From: a virus
Virus record (IMG/VR): IMGVR_UViG_3300022902_000006
Reading direction: 5' to 3' (one strand)
DNA: 64,000 nucleotides
Below, one piece after another: positions 2,934-58,483 of the stretch (its first letter is position 1; each line of letters begins with the position of its first letter). Below the pieces are notes generated by a model, which was not told the DNA's origin, made no database searches, and worked only from the letters and a program-made list of their open reading frames with translations. Made by a program: the position numbers and the translations under genes.

Positions 2934-3718
2934 TGATGCCCTCTCCCTACTACAAATTCGCCACCACCGCACTCGGCATCCTGGCTGAACAGGAGAAGCT
3001 CGCCAAACACAAGCTCTCCCGCCGCATGGACTTCCATGGCCTGAAGATCTCCATCGAGACGGACAAGGGCGAGTTCCGCCACTGGTATGACCCTCACAAC
3101 AAGGAGAAGGGTAAGACCAAGATGTCCCACCCCTACGGCTACATTCGCCGTACAGAGGGTGTGGACGGCGACCACGTGGACGTCTACATAGGCCCCCACC
3201 TCGATGCCCCCTTCGTCTACATCGTGCACCAGATGAAGGCCCCCGACTTCACCGCGTACGACGAAGACAAGTGCATGTTGGGGTTCCAAAACGCTGCTGA
3301 CGCGAAGGCCGCATACCTCACCAACTTCAATGACGACCGTTTCTTTGGTACCATGGACAAATTACCGTTCGCCACTTTCAAGACGAAGGTCATGGCCACG
3401 TTCAACAACCCAAAGAAGGTCACCGGACAGCGCCTCAAGAGCGCCGAACTCGCCTACCAGGTCAAGGTGAGCAACGCATTCACAAACCTGTTCCGGCGCG
3501 CGCCCAAACCTGCTGCTCCTGCTGCCGTACCTGGGATGCCGTCCTCGGCGTGGGCACTCGCCGCTCCCGCTGTAGGTGTCCCACTCGGCCTTGGTGCTGC
3601 ATCAGCGTACACGAATCACCAAGTACCACCCCCACCATCACCTGACCAGAGTGTGGTCACCACAGCGGGTAACTACCTGAAGGACCTATTGGGCGTCGCG
3701 CCCACGACTGAGGATTAG
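2930..3718 (+). CDS. inorganic pyrophosphatase-like (InPase, phage polyvalent-protein type) domain protein
   Basis: GLKISIE...YGYIRRTEGVDGDHVDVYIG...DEDKCMLGF...AKAAY matches the InPase domain signature. Confidence 0.8.
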   Translation: MMMPSPYYKFATTALGILAEQEKLAKHKLSRRMDFHGLKISIETDKGEFRHWYDPHNKEKGKTKMSHPYGYIRRTEGVDGDHVDVYIGPHLDAPFVYIVHQMKAPDFTAYDEDKCMLGFQNAADAKAAYLTNFNDDRFFGTMDKLPFATFKTKVMATFNNPKKVTGQRLKSAELAYQVKVSNAFTNLFRRAPKPAAPAAVPGMPSSAWALAAPAVGVPLGLGAASAYTNHQVPPPPSPDQSVVTTAGNYLKDLLGVAPTTED

Positions 3719-3720
3719 CA

Positions 3721-4584
3721 ATGAACCCACGTGAGCACCAAGCACTACTCATCAAACTCGGACTGGATACAAGCCAGGGTATCCCTGCTGGGTCCATGGA
3801 AGAGCAGCTCCTCGGGTACGGGAAGCCCCTGCTCGCCATCGGTGGTGGCGCTGCTGGTGGTGCCATCCTGGGTGGCTTGGGCGACAAGCTACTGGGGACC
3901 GCACTCAACCGTCAAGACCTCCCACCAATCCTCACCATGTTGGGTATGGCGGGTGGTGGCTACGGCGGGTACCAAGCAGCACAGCCCACCGATGGACAAT
4001 CCAGCTTCTGGGATAAAATCCGCAGGAAGACCAACGACGCCTCGCAGAGCGTCTTCGGTAGCAACTGGACCGAACCCCAAGGCACGGGCGGTGTGGGCGC
4101 AGGGGCATTCAGAGACACCACCTCGAAAGACGCAGCGTTCCTCGGCGACAACGTCCCCAGCATCACCCCTCGGCCTCAACCCCCCATGCCCAACAAGGTG
4201 GCCGCTGCACAACCATCCTTGGGTGACCCCGACTACTGGGCGGGGGGCCAAGCTGAGATCATCAAGCAGCAACTCGCCTCTCAAGGGGGCACTCCGATGC
4301 CCGAGGCCCCTATGCCCGAGGCTTCCGCACCCGGCGGTGCAGAGGGCGGCGGATCCACTGGCGTGGAGCAAGTAGCGGCGCAGCTCCCCCCGGGGTCCTT
4401 CCAGGGACTCAACATCCGTGTGACGCCCGAAGGAAAACGCTCCACGGGCCTGAAGGTCACCCCGGATGCCTTGGCTTCTCCCGAGGTGCTGCAGCAGGTA
4501 TTCCAGACAGAACCCGAAGCCCGCATCGAAATCACCTCACCCGAGACCTCCGCATCCGTGACGAGCTTCAGTGAGCGTGGCTGA
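3721..4584 (+). CDS. glycine-zipper protein, putative virion protein
   Basis: GGGAAGGAILGGLG and LGMAGGGYGGY motifs. Confidence 0.7.
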   Translation: MNPREHQALLIKLGLDTSQGIPAGSMEEQLLGYGKPLLAIGGGAAGGAILGGLGDKLLGTALNRQDLPPILTMLGMAGGGYGGYQAAQPTDGQSSFWDKIRRKTNDASQSVFGSNWTEPQGTGGVGAGAFRDTTSKDAAFLGDNVPSITPRPQPPMPNKVAAAQPSLGDPDYWAGGQAEIIKQQLASQGGTPMPEAPMPEASAPGGAEGGGSTGVEQVAAQLPPGSFQGLNIRVTPEGKRSTGLKVTPDALASPEVLQQVFQTEPEARIEITSPETSASVTSFSERG

Positions 4585-5756: not shown

Positions 5757-6423
5757 GAAGAAACCTATATCCCGCCCCCTCTTCTGGGTTGAAGGCATCA
5801 TCGGCTGCGGTAAAACCACCTTCTGCCGCGAAGTAGGGAAGCGCCTCAAGCTGCGTGTCATTGAGGAGCCCGTCGCCGAAAACCCGTACCTCGCACCCTT
5901 CTACGACAACCCCGCAGATCACGCCTTCGCCATGCAGATCTTCCTCCTCGGAAAACGACACGCCATGCAGCAGCTCGCCGCGTGGGAGTCCACTGGGGTA
6001 GGCGGATACGGCGGAGCCATGCTTGACCGCTCACTGGCCGGGGACCGTGTCTTCGCCAAGCTGCACCGCGACGCGGGGAACATCACTGCCCTCGACTGGG
6101 AAACCTACGAGATGTGGTACGACATCGCGTGCCGCAACCTCCTGCCGCCCACACGCATCATCTACCTTGACGCGTCCCCTGAGACTGCGCTGGAGCGCAT
6201 CCGCAAGCGCACCGAGGAAGACCCAAAGACACGGGGGTGTGAGTCCAAAATCCTGCTCCCCTATTTGCAACAACTCGAAGCGGGCTACCACGCACTGCTC
6301 GCCGAAGCCCGCGTGGGGTTGCTGCCTTGGGCACACGCCATAACCGTGAAAGAGATGGTGTGGGACCCAATCAACGACCACCCGGACTGGGACCGCATCG
6401 CAAACAATGTGGCCCAGGACTAA
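5749..6423 (+). CDS. deoxynucleoside kinase
   Basis: P-loop EGIIGCGKTT, EEPV, DRS motif, IYLDASPETALERIRKR lid. Confidence 0.9.
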   Translation: MNKKKPISRPLFWVEGIIGCGKTTFCREVGKRLKLRVIEEPVAENPYLAPFYDNPADHAFAMQIFLLGKRHAMQQLAAWESTGVGGYGGAMLDRSLAGDRVFAKLHRDAGNITALDWETYEMWYDIACRNLLPPTRIIYLDASPETALERIRKRTEEDPKTRGCESKILLPYLQQLEAGYHALLAEARVGLLPWAHAITVKEMVWDPINDHPDWDRIANNVAQD

Positions 6424-6424
6424 C

Positions 6425-6640
6425 ATGCGCGGCATCGAATACACGTACCCCCTTGCGCTAGGTGACTTCCTACAAGACCATGGAGACGGGACCTACTCCA
6501 CTTTACGTGGTAAATACCAAGGTGCCCTGACCAACGCTCCTACTGGATACATCCGAAACTTCGTACTAAAAAAATGGGACCTCACTGACCAAGAACGCCG
6601 CGTGCTAACGCGGTACAGCGTAAAGGATAAAGAAAAATGA
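6425..6640 (+). CDS. hypothetical protein
   Basis: Short ORF in operon. Confidence 0.5.
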   Translation: MRGIEYTYPLALGDFLQDHGDGTYSTLRGKYQGALTNAPTGYIRNFVLKKWDLTDQERRVLTRYSVKDKEK

Positions 6641-50749: not shown

Positions 50750-51145
50750 CTACTTCCCTCGTCTCTGGTAAGCGCGCACTCTATCACTCTTGGGGGCCAA
50801 TTCGTCCAGCCATTCCGTCAAGACCTTACGCACCTTCTTGCTCTGCGCAGTCTTGTTCGTGGGCATACGCTCCTCGACCCACTGCCCGGCGATCAGTGCA
50901 GCGTTGAACCTATCACCCCACACCAGACCTTTGGGGTCCACGGGGAGCATGATGAGCGTGTGTACCTGCTCGGAACTCTTCACCAGGATGCGACCCTTGT
51001 CGCCCGCCTTGTTCACGAAGAGGACGGCTTGTCCTGGCTTCAGTTTGTACTGGCTGGAAGTGAGGTGCATCGTGTTGGCTTGCCAACTCACCGTGCGCAG
51101 ATCTGTTGGGCGCACGACAGTCTTGATGACCCATTCGTGGGACAT
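50750..51145 (-). CDS. IS66 Orf2-like small protein (tentative)
   Basis: PTDLR...G.A.LFVNK...K..IL resembles the IS66 accessory protein; AAGGAG RBS. Confidence 0.4.
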   Translation of the reverse strand: MSHEWVIKTVVRPTDLRTVSWQANTMHLTSSQYKLKPGQAVLFVNKAGDKGRILVKSSEQVHTLIMLPVDPKGLVWGDRFNAALIAGQWVEERMPTNKTAQSKKVRKVLTEWLDELAPKSDRVRAYQRRGK

Positions 51146-51197: not shown

Positions 51198-52524
51198 GTC
51201 ACAGATATGAAGCCTCTGTGCTGGCGTGGGAGACATTGGCCGTTGTCGCCAGTACAAGGCCCTGGCGCTGGCGTAACGACGTGTATCGCTCGTCACAAAT
51301 ACAAAGCCCCTGTGCTGGCGTAGCGTCAATCGTTTCAAGTCACAAATACTAAGCCTTTGTGCTGGCATAATGGTATCTGGCTTAGGGGCACAAATACAAA
51401 GCCTCTGCGCTGGCGTTGCCACCTATGTTGCACGTCATCAGTATAAAGCCCTGACGCTGGCCCTTAGATACGTTCAGCGTTGGGGGCACAGATATCAAGC
51501 CTCTGCGCTGGCATAAGTGCACTCCAGACCTGGGTCACGAATACGAAGCCTCCGTGTTGGCATTATCCAGGTACGTCCATCGGCGTCAGTACAAGGCCCT
51601 GACGCGGGCGTAGGAGAGAAGTCTGGATCACAGATACAAAACCTCTGCGCGGGTGTAAAGACGACTGCGAGGTCGGCGCAGAAACAAAGCCTCTGCGCTG
51701 GCGTGAAGAAACTATACAAGGCGCTACAGATACGAAGCCTCTGTATCGGCGTCAAACCAACCCATGTGCTTATCACGAGTATGAGGCCCCCGTGCTGGCA
51801 TGGAAGTAGAATCCTAGATCAAGGCGGTAGTACAAAGCCCCATCGCTGGCATTATTGATCAGGCAATTCTATCGCAGATACCAAGCCTCCGCGCTGGCGT
51901 TATCGATTTCCTCAATGGCGCAGATACAACGCCCCTGCGCTGGCACAGCATGTTCATGATGGCGGTCACAGATACAAAGCCTCTGCGCTGGCGTATACAA
52001 AGCGAAGTACGTTGTGGGTACGAAGCCCCCGCGCTGGCACAGACGTTCAAGAAGGCGTCGTCAGTACAAAGCCCCAACGTTGGTGTAGGAGAGAAGCCTG
52101 AGTCACAGATACGAAGCCTCTGTGTTGGCGCAACAGCAGGGCGGTTAATGTCGTCGGTACAACGCCCCGACGCGGGCACGGTTCCGTTTGGGGGTAGGTC
52201 GTCGGTACAACGCCCCAACGCGGGCACTGAACAAGTTGGAATTCGGTCACAGATACGAAGCCTCTGCGCTGGCATAGGGAGCTATGTCTATCGTTGTCAG
52301 TACAAAGCCCTGGCGCGGGCGTAATGCTCATGGTGGCGGTCACAGATACAAAGCCACCGTGCTGGCGTATAACATAGCGTTCATCATAGGCGCAGATACG
52401 AAGCCTTCGCGCTGGCACAGATTAGTGTAGTAGTTTCACAGGCTGCTTGTCACAGATACCAAGCCTCTGTGCGGGCACCACCAGGAGTCCCACATGGGCA
52501 CAAGTACAAAGCCCTCATGCTGGC
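51198..52524 (-). CRISPR. CRISPR array: 28 degenerate 28-nt repeats (30 nt with a conserved RY), 27 spacers
   Basis: - strand consensus (RY)GCCAG-CRCAGA-GGCTTYGTA-TCTGYG-AC; spacers 17-23 nt (one 32); starts 4 nt after the cas stop codon. Confidence 0.9.
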
Positions 52525-52528
52525 GTTG

Positions 52529-54295
52529 TTATGCATTTTTCGTGTGGCGCTTTGCCCACTTCGCTTGGCGGGGTGCGGTATTTACGGCGTAATCCTTGAC
52601 CTTGGTGGGCACAGCTTCCTTAGCCCCCTGCTGGTGTTCGTCCCAGCGAAGCAGCAGGTTGTGCGCTGCGTTAGCGTCCTGATCCCAGTTTGCCTGGCAC
52701 TCGCTGCATGTGTGCATCACCTCTTTTGAGGCGTCCCAGGGTTCTTCCGGGTGGTCGCCACACACCGCACAATCCTGTGTGGTCATCGCTGCATTCACCT
52801 CAGCGACGGCGCCGAGACGCATCGCAAACCCATTGATGAGGTTGCTACGCAGTACCGAACACGCGGCGTCCCGTTGGTACAACCGGGCAGAAGCGATCTC
52901 TCCCTTATCAGACTCGGGGAGGACGTGCCGTTGCATTACGCTCAAATCGAACTGTTCCAGGACAAGAGTGTGGTACTTCCGCGAGAGGCGAGCGGCGATG
53001 TTACGGTACTGGTCCTTGCGGCGAGCGAGGCTCTTGTCACGTTGATTTGCTTCCCAGGACAACAGGTGCTTATCCTGCTTACGCCAGTCTTCCAAGCGCG
53101 GGTAGGCCAGGGTGTCACCTGCGAAGCGGGAGTCCCGCCACGTACGTGCAAGCGCCGCTAGGCGTGCCGTTGAACGCCAAGCATGCAACGTCGTTGCAGC
53201 CTCAATCAACCAGTCAGGGAGCGACGCCCCTTGTTTCGTTTGGCGGCGCATCCACGCAGCCAGCCAATCACGCTCAATGTTGAAGTTCTTGTCACGTGTG
53301 CTGCGCAGGTCCTCGACCTTGCGGAACCCAGAGCGGACAGCCCCCTCAAGGAGGATCTCCTCCTCATATCCTTGGTTGTCACGGAAGTACGCGACACGGA
53401 GGAGTCCACTGGGACGCACACGCCACCCAATGTCCACGGCCACAGTGCCAGTGCCACATGTTTCGCGGCGCCAGCCATCAGGGAGCGACAATGTAAAGTG
53501 GACGCTCCAGCGATCCTTGCCCGCCAGGCGTTCACGCAGAACTTTGACATCCTTGATCGTGGCCACCCGAGGCAGAGGACGGTGCAGGATGAGCGGCCAG
53601 GTTGCCCAGATGGGCGTCGTTTTGCCCTGCACGGTACCAACACGCATCTTCAACTCAGAGCGCTTCGGGTTCGAACCGACGAAGATGCGCAGAAGTGTAC
53701 TGTCACAGGCTAGTGCCTCAAAACTACTCAACCCTTTTTGTATCTGTACAGCGACGGCACCATGCCCCGTCCAACGCCGAAAGTGGGGGTCCACAAACGC
53801 AGCTTTGCGTGCTGCATCCACGGCCTTCTCAATAATTAGATATGTACCCCAGTAGCAACCACAGATTGCGCGTTCTTTCCGGATAGTAGCCTGCGCACTT
53901 TCATTCACCTTGTTGATGGCTGTCTGTACCGCCGTGTCATCCTTGAGTGCAGCTTTAGCCTTGCGCAGTTCCGCACGCACTGTCTTGAGCTGCTGCCGTG
54001 CAATCTTCACACGCTTCCGTTGCTCCTTGGTGGAAGAACGTGAACGTGATGCTCTGTGTGTCGCCCGGAGATCAGCGATTGCAGCATCAACGACTGCTTT
54101 TTTCGCTGTCGCTTCTTCTTCGAGAGGTTCTACCGTCGGATGGACACCCATGATGGCGCGTACCTTCTTACGGCGGTCACGTTCAATCTCGATGAGTTTG
54201 TTGTAATACTGATGTGCCAAATGTATCTGGTCGGATACGAGATCCACGTTTTCACACGGGGGTCTAAGCCCGTAGCGATACACTAGAATGGGCAT
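52529..54295 (-). CDS. cas12m: miniature type V effector of the Cas12m (V-U1) clade, 588 aa
   Basis: GAGGAG RBS; YRYGL..P...LAH, YWGTY, RRW.G.G...VQ, LHRPLP, RuvC-I VDIGWR, RuvC-II LVLEQ, two CxxC, RuvC-III DQDANAA; adjacent array. Confidence 0.8.
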   Translation of the reverse strand: MPILVYRYGLRPPCENVDLVSDQIHLAHQYYNKLIEIERDRRKKVRAIMGVHPTVEPLEEEATAKKAVVDAAIADLRATHRASRSRSSTKEQRKRVKIARQQLKTVRAELRKAKAALKDDTAVQTAINKVNESAQATIRKERAICGCYWGTYLIIEKAVDAARKAAFVDPHFRRWTGHGAVAVQIQKGLSSFEALACDSTLLRIFVGSNPKRSELKMRVGTVQGKTTPIWATWPLILHRPLPRVATIKDVKVLRERLAGKDRWSVHFTLSLPDGWRRETCGTGTVAVDIGWRVRPSGLLRVAYFRDNQGYEEEILLEGAVRSGFRKVEDLRSTRDKNFNIERDWLAAWMRRQTKQGASLPDWLIEAATTLHAWRSTARLAALARTWRDSRFAGDTLAYPRLEDWRKQDKHLLSWEANQRDKSLARRKDQYRNIAARLSRKYHTLVLEQFDLSVMQRHVLPESDKGEIASARLYQRDAACSVLRSNLINGFAMRLGAVAEVNAAMTTQDCAVCGDHPEEPWDASKEVMHTCSECQANWDQDANAAHNLLLRWDEHQQGAKEAVPTKVKDYAVNTAPRQAKWAKRHTKNA

Positions 54296-54314: not shown

Positions 54315-54773
54315 TCAGATGATTTCGTCGTCAGGGTGTCGTAGTGGGGGTTCAACGATGTGTACGGCGTGGGCGCAGTCTTGGGTGTCAACACCCAGGT
54401 TGCCACGTAGGAACATGGCGTAGCGCTCGTCAGGACCAACGGCTGTGACGTGTCGCCCTCGGCGGATCATCTGGAGGGGGTGCACCGTTTTGTAGTGGAC
54501 AGCGCAGCCTTTGGTGACTGTGTGGATGCCTCGGGTGTTCTTCATATAAACGTGGATTGAAACCCCTTCCGGGATTGGTGCATGTTGTCCGTGGCGCATC
54601 TTAGTGCAGACGTACACATGTTCGTAGATGTTGAAGAGGAGGCAGAAGCAACGGTTACAATAGCGCACACGGTACATGCGCTGCACCTTGGAGGGGAACT
54701 TCTGTTGCTGGAGGCAGGGGATTGCCAGAGCACAGTGTCCACAGGCTTTGTCGGTGGTGAGGATGGTTCTCAT
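54315..54773 (-). CDS. Cys-rich paralogue 11 (divergent)
   Basis: CGHCALAIPC...CNRC...C. Confidence 0.7.
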   Translation of the reverse strand: MRTILTTDKACGHCALAIPCLQQQKFPSKVQRMYRVRYCNRCFCLLFNIYEHVYVCTKMRHGQHAPIPEGVSIHVYMKNTRGIHTVTKGCAVHYKTVHPLQMIRRGRHVTAVGPDERYAMFLRGNLGVDTQDCAHAVHIVEPPLRHPDDEII

Positions 54774-55216
54774 GGCTTCTTTATGGGGAGGGAGAAGGCC
54801 CCTGATTGCAACGCGTGGAGCGTCTCATCGAGGAACTCTTCGTCCATGTCATGGATTGGTGTTTGGAAGTCGTACCCCCCTTTGTGCAGGATACAACTGG
54901 GGCACACTCCCGCGTTTATGTAGATGCCGAGGACAGGGTCTTTGATGCGCGTCTCAGGGGTGCCTGTGGCGTTCGCCGCAGCGACGTAGTTTGGCACACA
55001 AGAGGAGTCGGTCATGCTGCGCCGCTCACACCTGAACATCACCACCTTCTTGACTCGGGGTATGTGGGTGCGAGACTGCATTGATTCAGGTACGGGGTAG
55101 GTTTCTTTAAGGACGAAGCGTGTACACCTCACGCACAGGAAGGTTTCACTGTTGTTCATCTTGAACAACGCCCCGGAGAGGCAAGCGACGGCGAAGGGAC
55201 AGCGCTTACATTTCAT
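54770..55216 (-). CDS. Cys-rich paralogue 10
   Basis: MKCKRCPFAVAC...LCVRC...CERR...DP...CPSC. Confidence 0.85.
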   Translation of the reverse strand: MKCKRCPFAVACLSGALFKMNNSETFLCVRCTRFVLKETYPVPESMQSRTHIPRVKKVVMFRCERRSMTDSSCVPNYVAAANATGTPETRIKDPVLGIYINAGVCPSCILHKGGYDFQTPIHDMDEEFLDETLHALQSGAFSLPIKKP

Positions 55217-55590
55217 CCGATCTTCTTCCGGTGATCCTGCGCAGCGGCTTGTTGTAGTTCCTCCGACACACACGTGGAACACTTGCCCAACGGGATGTCG
55301 GTACCTGTCATTGGGTCCGTGACGTACGCAATAGTGTTTCTCGATGTAACAGCCTCGGACACTTGTTCGTGCACAAAATTGGACTCTGGGGGGCTGCGTT
55401 TCTCACAAAGGAATTCCACTATACGTTTGGGTTGTGGGATGACACGCACACACACTGTTTCCGCCACAGGGGGATTCTCAATGATGATGAGGCGGGAACA
55501 TTTAGCGCACAGACACACGTAGCTGCTGTTTATTTTGAACAGCGCCCCGGACATGCACGCAACCACGAAAGGACAGCGCTTACACTTCAT
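55213..55590 (-). CDS. Cys-rich paralogue 9
   Basis: MKCKRCPFVVAC...LCAKC...CEKR...DP...CSTC. Confidence 0.85.
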   Translation of the reverse strand: MKCKRCPFVVACMSGALFKINSSYVCLCAKCSRLIIIENPPVAETVCVRVIPQPKRIVEFLCEKRSPPESNFVHEQVSEAVTSRNTIAYVTDPMTGTDIPLGKCSTCVSEELQQAAAQDHRKKIG

Positions 55591-56041
55591 CGAGGTGCTC
55601 CACGGCGTATACCTCCTTGTCCCCAATGGCTTGGGGCACGGCGCCTTTGCATTCCTCACATTTGGTAATCTTGATGTGGCTCGTACCTCCCGGCGACATC
55701 GGGTCTATGGGCTCACCCAAGGCTCCTGATGATAATTTATCCAGGTTGAAGACGTCTACCTGGGGGATGTCGTAGATATCCAGGAACGCACGGTCCAGCT
55801 TCTCACAGTGGAGGTATCGACGCGCGGCAACGGCTACTTCTGTTTGCCATACACGCAGAGGGTTGTCGGGTGGTGACCCGGGAGCAGGGTCCACGTCGAT
55901 GAGTTCGTAGGATGTGACCTGCAACCGCGCGCACTCACGACAAAGGAGGATTGTGATGCTGCTCCCTATCACTGCGCCCACCTCTGATTGGAGCTTTCCC
56001 GCCATGCACAGCAGCACATAAGGACACCGGCTACACTTCAC
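55580..56041 (-). CDS. Cys-rich paralogue 8
   Basis: (V)KCSRCPYVLLC...LCREC...CEK...DP...CEEC. Confidence 0.85.
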   Translation of the reverse strand: MKCSRCPYVLLCMAGKLQSEVGAVIGSSITILLCRECARLQVTSYELIDVDPAPGSPPDNPLRVWQTEVAVAARRYLHCEKLDRAFLDIYDIPQVDVFNLDKLSSGALGEPIDPMSPGGTSHIKITKCEECKGAVPQAIGDKEVYAVEHLDEV

Positions 56042-56585
56042 GCCCGTCCTTTCCTTTGATCCCCCAGGGGTGCACCAGCGCTTCCATTGCCCCACTGTCC
56101 CGCGCTCGCTTGAACGCCAGCTCGTCGTCCAGGTTCACGATGCGGTAGGCGCTGAAGGCACCATGCCTGCGCTCCTCACAATTACAGCGGTTGCAAACCT
56201 GCATGCGGAGAACTGTTCCACCTACGGGGTCCACGACGTTCATTGTGATGGGCTCCGCCAAGGAAGACATGTGGTCTCCCGGGTCACCCACGGTAGATGT
56301 GGCAATACCTTTGCCTTCCGCAGTGTTCCGTACCCGATCAACAATATCCGCGTAGCTTCGCTTCTCACAGATGAGGTAGGTCAGCGTCCCATCGTAGGGC
56401 AACACACCATGAAACTGCCGATAGAATTCAACAGTGTCAGCGGGTTCATTAGGCCCCGGACCAGCCTTGGCGTGCACAAGCTCAAGGCGCCGACACCGAT
56501 AGCAGAGCGACGCAGTGCGGTCCTTGGAGTGCAGGAGCGTTCCACCGAGGCACGGCAAGACGAGAGGGCACTCTTTACATTTCAT
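56031..56585 (-). CDS. Cys-rich paralogue 7
   Basis: MKCKECPLVLPC...LCYRC...CEKR...DP...CNRC. Confidence 0.85.
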   Translation of the reverse strand: MKCKECPLVLPCLGGTLLHSKDRTASLCYRCRRLELVHAKAGPGPNEPADTVEFYRQFHGVLPYDGTLTYLICEKRSYADIVDRVRNTAEGKGIATSTVGDPGDHMSSLAEPITMNVVDPVGGTVLRMQVCNRCNCEERRHGAFSAYRIVNLDDELAFKRARDSGAMEALVHPWGIKGKDGREV

Positions 56586-57067
56586 GGCGTGTCTCCCGTG
56601 GGGACGATGATCTTTCGCAGCTCACTCTCCTCCCGCAGTCTCTCTCGGATGAGGTTGCCCCCAGCCTGCCCCACCGCTTCAAAGATGGCCACCGTCTGCT
56701 TCGCCATCATCTCTGTGATTGCAGGGTCAGTGAAGGTGACCTTCCGGGAGTCCAGGTCCTCGTGCAGCTTAATGCGGTAAGGGAGAACACGGCGGTCCTC
56801 GGGGTCACACATGGTGCAGCCCGAGACGAGCAGTGGGCCACCGTCCACAGGGTCCACGAGCTGAACACCACGACGTACCTCCGGAGCGGCGCGGTACTGG
56901 AACTGCAGCACGTCAAGGTTCCTCTTCTCACACACGAAGTGCAAGCTGCGGGGCTCCTGCACGAGTAGTTCGAGACGCCCACACTGAGGACATAGGCGCA
57001 TAACGATGGCGCTGTGGAAGGTACCCTGCATGCATGGTAGGGCGACGGGGCAGTGTTTGCATTTCAT
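56582..57067 (-). CDS. Cys-rich paralogue 6
   Basis: MKCKHCPVALPC...LCPQC...CEKR...DP...CTMC. Confidence 0.85.
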   Translation of the reverse strand: MKCKHCPVALPCMQGTFHSAIVMRLCPQCGRLELLVQEPRSLHFVCEKRNLDVLQFQYRAAPEVRRGVQLVDPVDGGPLLVSGCTMCDPEDRRVLPYRIKLHEDLDSRKVTFTDPAITEMMAKQTVAIFEAVGQAGGNLIRERLREESELRKIIVPTGDTP

Positions 57068-57624
57068 GATTTCTTCTCTTTGTCACCAAGGATGTACTCT
57101 GGTGGCACACCCGTACCTCGTATCATGAGATTGAGCGTAGCATCGTATCGCTCACGCATGGTGTTTGTCTTACGTACTTGGCGTAGTGTTTTTAGGAGCA
57201 CACTTCTTTTCTTAGCCATCTCAGCATCGGGGTCCTTTGCTGAAAAGGTGATTCGCTGCATGTCGAGGTCCTCGTACATTTCTACCACGTACAGATTGTG
57301 CCGAGGTCCGTCACACCGGATGCAAGCAGACACAGGCAGGAAACCGCCGGACACTGGGTCGACAACCTGAATGCCTCTTCCATCCTTGGGAGCATCAATA
57401 ATAGCTTGTTGCAATGTAAGCAGGTTCCTCTTCTCACACCGGAAGTACAGCGCGCGCTTTACGCGGTAAACTGGGCCGTTGAGAGCACCACGCGTTTTAA
57501 CGGGGAGCACCTCAAATAGCCCACATACTTGGCACAAGTTGATGATGACTGCGAAGGCGTGGTGATTGTCGAACCACACCCCCTGCATACACGGCAAGGC
57601 CAGGGGACAGTTTCCACACTTCAA
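57064..57624 (-). CDS. Cys-rich paralogue 5
   Basis: TTG start; KCGNCPLALPC...LCQVC...CEKR...DP...CIRC. Confidence 0.85.
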   Translation of the reverse strand: MKCGNCPLALPCMQGVWFDNHHAFAVIINLCQVCGLFEVLPVKTRGALNGPVYRVKRALYFRCEKRNLLTLQQAIIDAPKDGRGIQVVDPVSGGFLPVSACIRCDGPRHNLYVVEMYEDLDMQRITFSAKDPDAEMAKKRSVLLKTLRQVRKTNTMRERYDATLNLMIRGTGVPPEYILGDKEKKS

Positions 57625-58028
57625 AACAAAGACCCTCCTGGCCCTGCTCCTGGACCGAAAATGAGGTTGTGAACCTCGTTGATGAGTTCCGTCGCGCACT
57701 CTTCACACAGGGTTACGAGGAAGTCTTTCCCTAGAACAACAGGAACGTGACTGTACGAAAAGCGTTGCACCTCCTCCCGCTTCCTTTTCACCACGCGTCG
57801 GATGGCATTTTCGAAGGCCCCCTTGAGTTTGTTGGCAGAGTAGTTTTCACTTTGTACGCAGATAGGTAGGAGGTCCCACACCTCGTGGATCTCAGCTTGC
57901 CCCACTCGCAATACTTGCACCTTGTTACATGTTGGACACACCACGATCCCGCGCACTGGTTCCTTTCCCGCCAGACATGCTAGAGCGTGGGGGCATTTGG
58001 CACAGGCTGATGTTATTTCATGAATCAT
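57621..58028 (-). CDS. Cys-rich paralogue 4
   Basis: CAKCPHALAC...VCPTC...C...CEEC. Confidence 0.8.
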   Translation of the reverse strand: MIHEITSACAKCPHALACLAGKEPVRGIVVCPTCNKVQVLRVGQAEIHEVWDLLPICVQSENYSANKLKGAFENAIRRVVKRKREEVQRFSYSHVPVVLGKDFLVTLCEECATELINEVHNLIFGPGAGPGGSLF

Positions 58029-58483
58029 GATCCATAGCTACCGGGCCGAGACACCACCCCCACGTTCTCGTGGATGGTGCTAGGGTCGTAGCCTCGCAGA
58101 GCATCAGGGTGGTCGTCCACATCAATGTACAAGACGCGTGTGCTCCGGTTGAAGTATTTGCTCTGTCCGAAGATAGCATCACAGAGGCCACACGTTTCGT
58201 CCTCGTTCCGCTGCATCGCTGCCTTACGTACGAGCTTATACCCTGTGATGTAGGGGCGATCGGCAGGTTCCATGCTTTTGACCGGAGGGCACTCGAAGAT
58301 CCAAACGATGTCGTGTAACACCAATATCTCAGGTACCCCATTTTTCCCTGGGATACGGATGTGCCTGTCTCCACGTGGGGCAAGTACGGCGGTACGCTCA
58401 CACCCCTCGCACAGATGCATAAACCCAGGTGGCTCCCCATTCTGCATGCACGGGATAGCGAAAGGGCATCTACGACAATCCAC
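58025..58483 (-). CDS. Cys-rich paralogue 3
   Basis: GTG start; CRRCPFAIPC...LCEGC...C...CGLC. Confidence 0.8.
   Translation of the reverse strand: MDCRRCPFAIPCMQNGEPPGFMHLCEGCERTAVLAPRGDRHIRIPGKNGVPEILVLHDIVWIFECPPVKSMEPADRPYITGYKLVRKAAMQRNEDETCGLCDAIFGQSKYFNRSTRVLYIDVDDHPDALRGYDPSTIHENVGVVSRPGSYGS

Follow-up and report, generated by a model that had tools for sequence, protein, structure and literature searches.

The locus described here lies in a 64,000-nt stretch of viral DNA, referred to below as the window. It belongs to a phage genome represented by a 180,179-bp IMG/VR virus record, which CheckV rated as 100% complete. The genome encodes DNA polymerase, primase, helicases, ribonucleotide reductase and a head protease, as well as multisubunit RNA polymerase genes that are split in the manner of jumbo phages, and a DNA-polymerase scan revealed no close phage relatives. 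The window and the genome record differ at two single bases, 5218 (C/A) and 10309 (G/A). At the locus itself, a gene for a 588-aa protein is followed on the same strand by an array of drifted repeats and very short spacers (Table 1). The array sits inside a string of genes, and gene calls on identical contigs placed the 131-aa gene, then a 106-aa ORF and then thyX after it. It has no leader of its own, and a scan of the region for promoters and terminators gave no signal above background. A run of small minus-strand genes (54315–59473) lies directly upstream of cas12m; two of them (54315–54773 and 54770–55282) had no match to a Pfam family.

Judged from its sequence, the effector adjoining the array is a Cas12m. 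Pfam PF07282, the Cas12f1-like TNB domain, was detected in the 588-aa product above the cut-off (E 6e-9), and residues 5–549 matched the Cas12m structure PDB 23vw_A (E 4e-75), with weaker PDB matches to Cas12m2 8hhl/8hio and to 8pm4 (E ~1e-19). A preliminary description of this DNA had invoked a Cas12 effector for the short spacers, and the TNB domain and the match to 23vw_A identify the neighbouring gene as such an effector, namely Cas12m. The longest ORF extends to 54439; the start of cas12m was set at 54295 on the basis of homologues and of an identical database protein, P0001. The protein carries the RuvC D-E-D triad and four zinc-finger cysteines, all of which are kept across 30 homologues, and its gene is the only one of Cas12 type in the 180-kb genome. 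Cas1 (PF01867) and Cas2 (PF09827) were absent from the complete 180-kb record, in searches in which the positive controls were detected.

Table 1 Positions of the features of the Cas12m locus within the window
Feature	Position	Strand	Remarks
cas12m	52529-54295	minus	588 aa
Compact CRISPR array, 28 repeats and 27 spacers	51198-52526	minus	begins 2 nt past the cas12m stop codon
Next same-strand gene, 131 aa, no family	50750-51145	minus	starts 52 nt past the last repeat
Repeat copy identical to the array consensus	51965-51994	minus	best covariance-model score, 48.1 bits
Spacer of unit 1, 18 nt	52479-52496	minus	antisense to a Shine-Dalgarno sequence, 6-nt gap and ATG
Spacer of unit 2, the only long one, 30 nt	52419-52448	minus	near the ~34-nt spacers of related arrays
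Spacer of unit 4 (24 in the preliminary description)	52323-52338	minus	related to the unit 12 spacer, 13/16
Spacer of unit 9 (19 in the preliminary description)	52087-52101	minus	related to the unit 19 spacer, 13/15
Spacer of unit 12 (16 in the preliminary description)	51947-51964	minus	partner of the unit 4 spacer; marginal likeness to unit 10 (18 in the preliminary description)
Spacer of unit 19 (9 in the preliminary description)	51612-51626	minus	related to the unit 9 spacer, 13/15

Structure of the array

All 28 repeat starts fall between 51198 and 52497, and the units, which we numbered from the cas12m end and therefore in the opposite order to the spacer numbers of the preliminary description, recur with a period of 45–51 nt except for two (60 and 50). 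The repeat is 30 nt long including a conserved RY dinucleotide, of which R was present in 28/28 copies and Y in 27/28. The same two bases directly precede GCC in the 36-nt repeats of related loci, and RY was therefore assigned to the repeat. Measured in this way the spacers are 15–21 nt long, with a mode of 18 (10 of the 27), plus one of 30 nt; with RY counted as spacer, as had been done before, they measure 17–23 nt and one of 32. The very short spacers first reported (17–23 nt, or 15–21 nt without RY) were thus confirmed, the true length being 15–21 nt. All spacers are unique. The mean likeness between repeats is 20.9 of 30 positions (~70%), and no copy of the repeat was found outside this one array anywhere in the 180-kb genome. 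A known RNA family and a tandem repeat were considered and rejected, as neither Rfam nor Tandem Repeats Finder reported the array region; both miss the array because its copies average only 20.9/30 identical positions.

Fold and strand of the repeats

Read on the minus strand, each unit is laid out as RY, GCCAG, a 6-nt stem, a 9-nt loop opening with GGC, the second 6-nt strand of the stem, AC and then the spacer. Counted from the spacer, stem II pairs positions -23 to -18 with -8 to -3 and stem I pairs -28 to -26 with -17 to -15; stem I joins the GCC ahead of the 6-nt stem to the GGC at the start of the loop. This register is the same as that of the PmCas12m crRNA pseudoknot (bioRxiv 10.64898/2026.03.26.714355). 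Across the 28 copies, 96.8% of the cells of the stem alignment were paired, and 45 cells were changed on both sides. None of 500 shuffles equalled the observed pairing, and pairing fell to 33–48% when the partner was slid by 1–3 columns. Covariation was present in all six pairs of stem II and in one pair of stem I. The bases of the loop and of stem I were invariant, save in one copy with a compensatory stem I of ACC/GGT. The results demonstrated that the repeats keep the Cas12m pseudoknot despite their drift, through compensatory changes.

The strand was assigned from the same pairs. On the minus strand the six stem pairs (168 cells) comprised 140 Watson–Crick pairs, 21 G–U pairs and 7 mismatches; the same pairs on the plus strand gave 140, 6 and 22, respectively, and in units 5 and 11 the plus strand would give the better pairing. 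From the 28 copies of the window we built a covariance model and applied it to related phage loci. It found arrays on the cas12m strand, nearly all of them downstream of the gene, in ~40 of these loci, and their main arrays begin with the same architecture of GCC, stem, GGC, stem and AC. A plus-strand reading was rejected on account of the G–U wobbles (21 on minus versus 6 on plus) and of the strand of the main arrays in the relatives.

Origin and targets of the spacers

The pooled GC content of the spacers was 47%, compared with 58.2 ± 2.0% in sets of random phage segments (0/5000 sets as low). By their composition, the spacers do not appear to be local filler and look like real guides of foreign origin. 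Within the 180-kb genome of the phage itself, no spacer matched at one mismatch or fewer and no 12-nt seed match was found, and both matches at 2–3 mismatches and seeds of 11–13 nt were at or below the level of shuffled controls. Self-targeting and autoregulation were rejected on these chance-level self and seed matches across the genome.

Searches outside the genome were equally without a target. Whole-array blastn against the INPHARED isolate phages gave only matches of E ~5, exact scans with the 30-, 21-, 20- and 19-nt spacers gave no match in IMG/VR or in metagenome contigs, and 14 Cas12m-bearing phage records and five MAGs with relatives gave repeat-to-repeat matches only. Taken over all sequences searched (self, INPHARED, IMG/VR, metagenome contigs, 17 phage records and 5 MAGs), no PAM-consistent target was found beyond chance, and guides of 15–21 nt carry too little information for a blind search of a large collection. 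As no target was found, a PAM is not deducible.

Individual spacers gave three observations. The 18 bases of unit 1 are also present at the starts of genes in REQ3-like Rhodococcus phages and in a single unrelated phage contig of 44% GC. We rejected these gene starts as a target because the number of hits was about that expected by chance for an 18-mer. This reading was also disfavoured by the generic nature of the sequence, a ribosome-binding site plus ATG, by the lack of matches to any other spacer in those genomes, and by the PAM position of the matches, which reads GGC or GGT, unlike the known T- or C-rich PAMs of Cas12m. CTCC, the complement of the Shine-Dalgarno core, was found in 5 of the 27 guides against 2.1 expected (P 0.045), two of the five being a related pair; the enrichment is mild and is taken as a lead only. 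The first 14 nt of the unit 18 spacer are complementary to a repeat variant in the array of a related locus, L077 (6075–6088 and 6147–6160; E ~0.02 per spacer). As a target this 14-nt match was rejected as being at chance level; anti-array targeting of this type would be interesting were such matches to recur.

The missing targets bear on an alternative reading, in which the repeats would be sites where Cas12m docks on or cuts the phage transcript, or a sponge for Cas12m (the phage's or the host's), and the spacers would be linkers. In its favour are the lack of a target for any spacer and the position of the array in a gene string without a leader; linkers give no reason, however, for a spacer length held tightly at that of the Cas12m duplex (15–21 nt, mode 18) or for a GC content 11 points under that of the genome. 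Related phages (G008, G013, L002, L007 and L082) do scatter single repeats between genes, but the genome of the window has none scattered, and its cognate effector gene is adjacent and intact. On this balance we regard docking sites or a sponge as improbable, and guides as the better account of the spacers.

Guide length and DNA cleavage

In Cas12a and Cas9, truncating the guide uncouples DNA binding from cleavage, and the window Cas12m has its RuvC D-E-D triad intact. Both points favour the version put forward in the preliminary description, in which a cutting-competent Cas12 would be made into a repressor by guides too short to license cleavage.

GoCas12m reads 18 bp of guide–target duplex (PMC11013384), and PmCas12m forms a 17-bp duplex and has an optimum guide of 17 nt; the ~35-nt spacers of PmCas12m are trimmed to ~17 nt in its crRNAs (bioRxiv 10.64898/2026.03.26.714355). 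In the Cas12m2 structure, crRNA positions -36 to -30 and 16–20 are disordered (PMC10442227), and these are essentially the parts that are missing from the units of the window. Each unit of ~48 nt has the size of a mature crRNA. Because Cas12m reads 17–18 nt and no more, the guides of the window are full length for this family and not truncated; six of them, at only 15–16 nt, are under the reported 17-nt optimum. Guide length is therefore not what stops cutting.

All tested Cas12m proteins bind DNA and silence without cutting, D-E-D types included (PMC11013384, PMC10442227), and PAM-dependent DNA binding without dsDNA cleavage was reported for eight orthologues, again with D-E-D types among them (PMC11013384). 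Non-cutting is thus a property of the Cas12m family and not an effect of guide length. With the D-E-D triad kept, the window Cas12m may nevertheless be capable of some cutting or nicking. The earlier claim that short guides favour binding and silencing over cutting therefore holds in its outcome, as the tested orthologues silence without cutting, and fails in its cause, as the guides are not truncated. D-E-D orthologues spare dsDNA even with guides of normal length (PMC11013384), and mature Cas12m guides are ~17 nt even when they derive from ~35-nt spacers (bioRxiv 10.64898/2026.03.26.714355); we consider a repressor produced by too-short guides highly unlikely.

Relatedness of spacers and stability of the array

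We found that some spacers resemble one another, as first described. The spacers of units 9 and 19 match at 13/15 after trimming (15/17 with RY; P ~0.003 versus shuffled spacers), and this relationship was upheld. Three further spacers, those of units 12, 10 and 4, had been said to share a core. This proved correct for units 4 and 12 (13/16; 0/300 shuffles gave a second-best pair that good), but the match between units 10 and 12 was marginal (11/16, P ~0.03). A GTATA start that had been noted in two spacers (numbers 17 and 25 of the preliminary description) consists of two repeat bases and three bases shared by chance, and has no meaning.

The flanking repeats bear on how such pairs arose. The repeats serving units 4 and 12 as 5′ handles agree at 27/30 positions, which places them in the top 3% of repeat pairs, and this pair fits copying of a whole unit. 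Two of the three differences between its spacers lie 6 nt apart and would be synonymous in one frame, an outcome with about a one-in-three chance to which no weight was given. For units 9 and 19 the flanking repeats show no more than average likeness (22/30 for the 5′ handles and 23/30 on the other side), and block duplication as the source of this pair was set aside as unsupported by them; the two might just as well be independent guides to related targets. The proposal that guides grow by duplication and point mutation thus fits units 4 and 12 only. For the further idea that the guides track targets in a host or competitor, the collections searched gave no PAM-consistent match.

The array was base-for-base identical in contigs from other samples; the phage occurs in ENA ERZ27250163 and SRA SRR7624570. 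The least probable reading of the locus, a decaying, non-functional array with eroding repeats and spacers, could appeal to repeats only ~70% alike, spacers shorter than those of relatives and the lack of adaptation genes, but we give it almost no credence, since erosion would break the hairpin, whereas the 45 cells changed on both sides keep its pairing and the loop and stem I are invariant. The units are also of uniform length, the cas12m gene is undamaged, and independent samples carry one and the same array.

Related phage Cas12m loci

IMG/VR contained 79 or more viral loci that encode a relative of the window Cas12m, many of them on contigs of 100–245 kb; hundreds more relatives, among them the 83%-identical P0002, were present in protein data, and relatives also occur in MAGs of many phyla. 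Most of the loci have 36-nt repeats with a period of 71–76 nt, and short units only sporadically. The arrays of L004, L030, L029, L067, L006 and L082 are like that of the window in repeat architecture, strand and compensatory stem changes. Occasional spacers of 12–25 nt and duplicated or related spacers, as in L001, are also shared with the window; compensatory stem variants, occasional short spacers and duplicated spacers are all common, as L001, L029, L030 and L067 show. Among the arrays seen, no other is compact over its whole length, apart from small ones that precede cas12m in L006 and follow it in L082; of these compact arrays, that of the window is the largest. With 27 units, all but one of them short, it forms the extreme of a trend.

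Several relatives showed features of their own. In L006, whose Cas12m is 46% identical to that of the window, the compact upstream array (3514–3975) has drifted repeats, spacers of 12–24 nt and a promoter-like TTGACA...TATAC stretch in its middle, and a canonical array of 36 + 34 nt units lies downstream of cas12m (5818–5920); the two arrays suggest two functional guide classes in one locus. In L082 (4850–5500), five drifted compact repeats are followed by a small ORF and two more repeats, so that repeats are interleaved with a gene. The distant relatives L002 (4924–4987) and L007 (3872–3901) carry one or two Cas12m repeats just upstream of the cas12m start, and in L002 the last of these runs directly into the ribosome-binding region of cas12m; these upstream repeats may serve autoregulation. 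G008 and G013, the records of L073 and L046, have many solitary repeat copies scattered genome-wide (in G013, for example, at 36.8–40.1, 59.9, 72.6–72.9, 91.5 and 106 kb), whereas the phage of the window has none. Assemblies often break 50–150 nt past cas12m, at the start of the array (as at the contig ends of L003 and L006), and in L005 a gene caller placed a 272-aa 'protein' across the array (5768–6586). As a result of such breaks and miscalled ORFs, arrays of this type go unannotated.

Discussion

Taken as a whole, we consider it probable that the window carries a compact type V-M guide array that silences DNA outside the phage. That the locus is a Cas12m crRNA array we hold with high confidence; for the silencing of DNA outside the phage, taken by itself, we lean only modestly in favour. 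This second part is inferred from the behaviour of the tested orthologues, which bind without cutting, together with the lack of self-matches. In the model that we favour, the array would be co-transcribed with cas12m and the downstream genes, and one cut per unit would yield ~27 ready-made crRNAs of mature size. Loaded with these, Cas12m would bind matching DNA next to a PAM, belonging to the host or to rival mobile elements and not to the phage itself, and would block transcription or replication there without cutting.

The absence of cas1 and cas2 would mean that the array is not refreshed by adaptation, and the drift of the repeats may be explained on that ground, with selection acting on their structure only. 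Drift with a kept fold is what would be expected once adaptation has ceased to homogenise an array that is still under selection. Such drift would also remove the long identical stretches that let recombination delete units, and new units would arise, at least sometimes, by unit copying and mutation. The drift implies that guides are retained for long periods, which is more in keeping with conserved targets than with a rapid arms race. The array looks like a fixed gene-silencing guide set rather than an adaptive immune memory, and the earlier comparison with a set of repressors is, with no cas1/cas2 and drifted repeats, a reasonable one if the 'repressor set' is taken as fixed. A more specific version, which we put forward as speculation and think rather doubtful, is a hard-wired multiplexed interference programme, in which each of ~27 minimal guides would silence a conserved locus of the host or of a rival, some perhaps at gene starts, as the antisense match of guide 1 to a ribosome-binding site plus ATG and the mild excess of CTCC might hint, and the set would grow by copying and mutation of whole units without Cas1–Cas2.

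If the guides are active, the array would be a natural counterpart of engineered non-repetitive multiplex guide arrays, with 28 handles of one fold and differing sequence and guides cut to precisely what the protein reads. The 28 copies also amount to a mutational map of what the handle tolerates (invariant GCC/GGC and loop T's, free stem sequence), which would help in planning constructs for stable multiplex repression by Cas12m. The usual CRISPR finders demand that repeats be near-identical and spacers no shorter than 25 nt (for example, the settings in PMC12607003); drifted compact arrays are therefore missed, and surveys of phage CRISPR undercount them. The locus also prompts one to ask how a set of guides can form and persist in the absence of adaptation genes, and what advantage ~27 fixed silencing guides would give a phage.

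Within what was searched, the literature covers the Cas12m arrays of bacteria and a single phage Cas12m, whose array is conventional (bioRxiv 10.64898/2026.09.14.751636); no account of the compact drifted form was found there. With the bacterial type V-M systems (MmCas12m2, GoCas12m, MsCas12m and PmCas12m), the locus shares effector homology, including the same fold with RuvC and TNB zinc finger (PMC10442227, PMC11013384), and a crRNA that runs from repeat to spacer, with the same pseudoknot register in its handle and an effective guide of 17–18 nt (bioRxiv 10.64898/2026.03.26.714355). Those systems usually lack adaptation genes and silence by binding, and the window array is likewise without cas1/cas2 or any adaptation module. 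It differs from them in its repeats, which are 30 nt long and ~70% alike instead of 36 nt and near-identical, in its spacers of 15–21 nt instead of ~35 nt, and in its carrier, a 180-kb phage of lytic type. In its carriage by a phage the locus resembles MvCas12m of myxophage MV-1, reported as the first phage Cas12m, which is also a D-E-D Cas12m next to its array; neither cas1/2/4 nor a tracrRNA is present there, and a search for targets likewise gave none (bioRxiv 10.64898/2026.09.14.751636). The MV-1 array has one consensus repeat and eight spacers and was recovered by a standard CRISPR finder, whereas the 28 drifted repeats of the window would escape such tools. With at least 79 viral loci in IMG/VR, phage Cas12m is common rather than exceptional.

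Short, fixed guides are known from other settings. CRISPR-associated transposons use short atypical crRNAs, in one or two units, for attachment-site targeting. Regulatory mini-arrays and crRNA-like RNAs also have degenerate repeats, short or partly matching spacers and fixed, non-immune targeting (bioRxiv 10.1101/2023.03.03.530964). They consist of one or two units aimed at a promoter of their own locus; the window array, by contrast, has 27 units without a self-match, and its 11–13 nt self-seeds are at or below chance. It is also unlike solitary-repeat RNA anti-CRISPRs, which mimic the repeat of a host system in a virus that lacks the cognate cas gene, in that the cognate cas12m is adjacent and the genome holds no solitary copies. 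A functional model for the proposed reading is TldR, a phage-encoded, TnpB-derived relative of Cas12 on mobile elements that represses with short guides instead of cutting (bioRxiv 10.1101/2023.11.30.569447; PMC13418256). TldR has a mutated, inactivated RuvC, and each gene comes with a single long, fixed guide RNA that overlaps the 3′ end of that gene; the known target of TldR is host flagellin, whereas the window locus combines an intact D-E-D triad with a CRISPR array of 27 guides.
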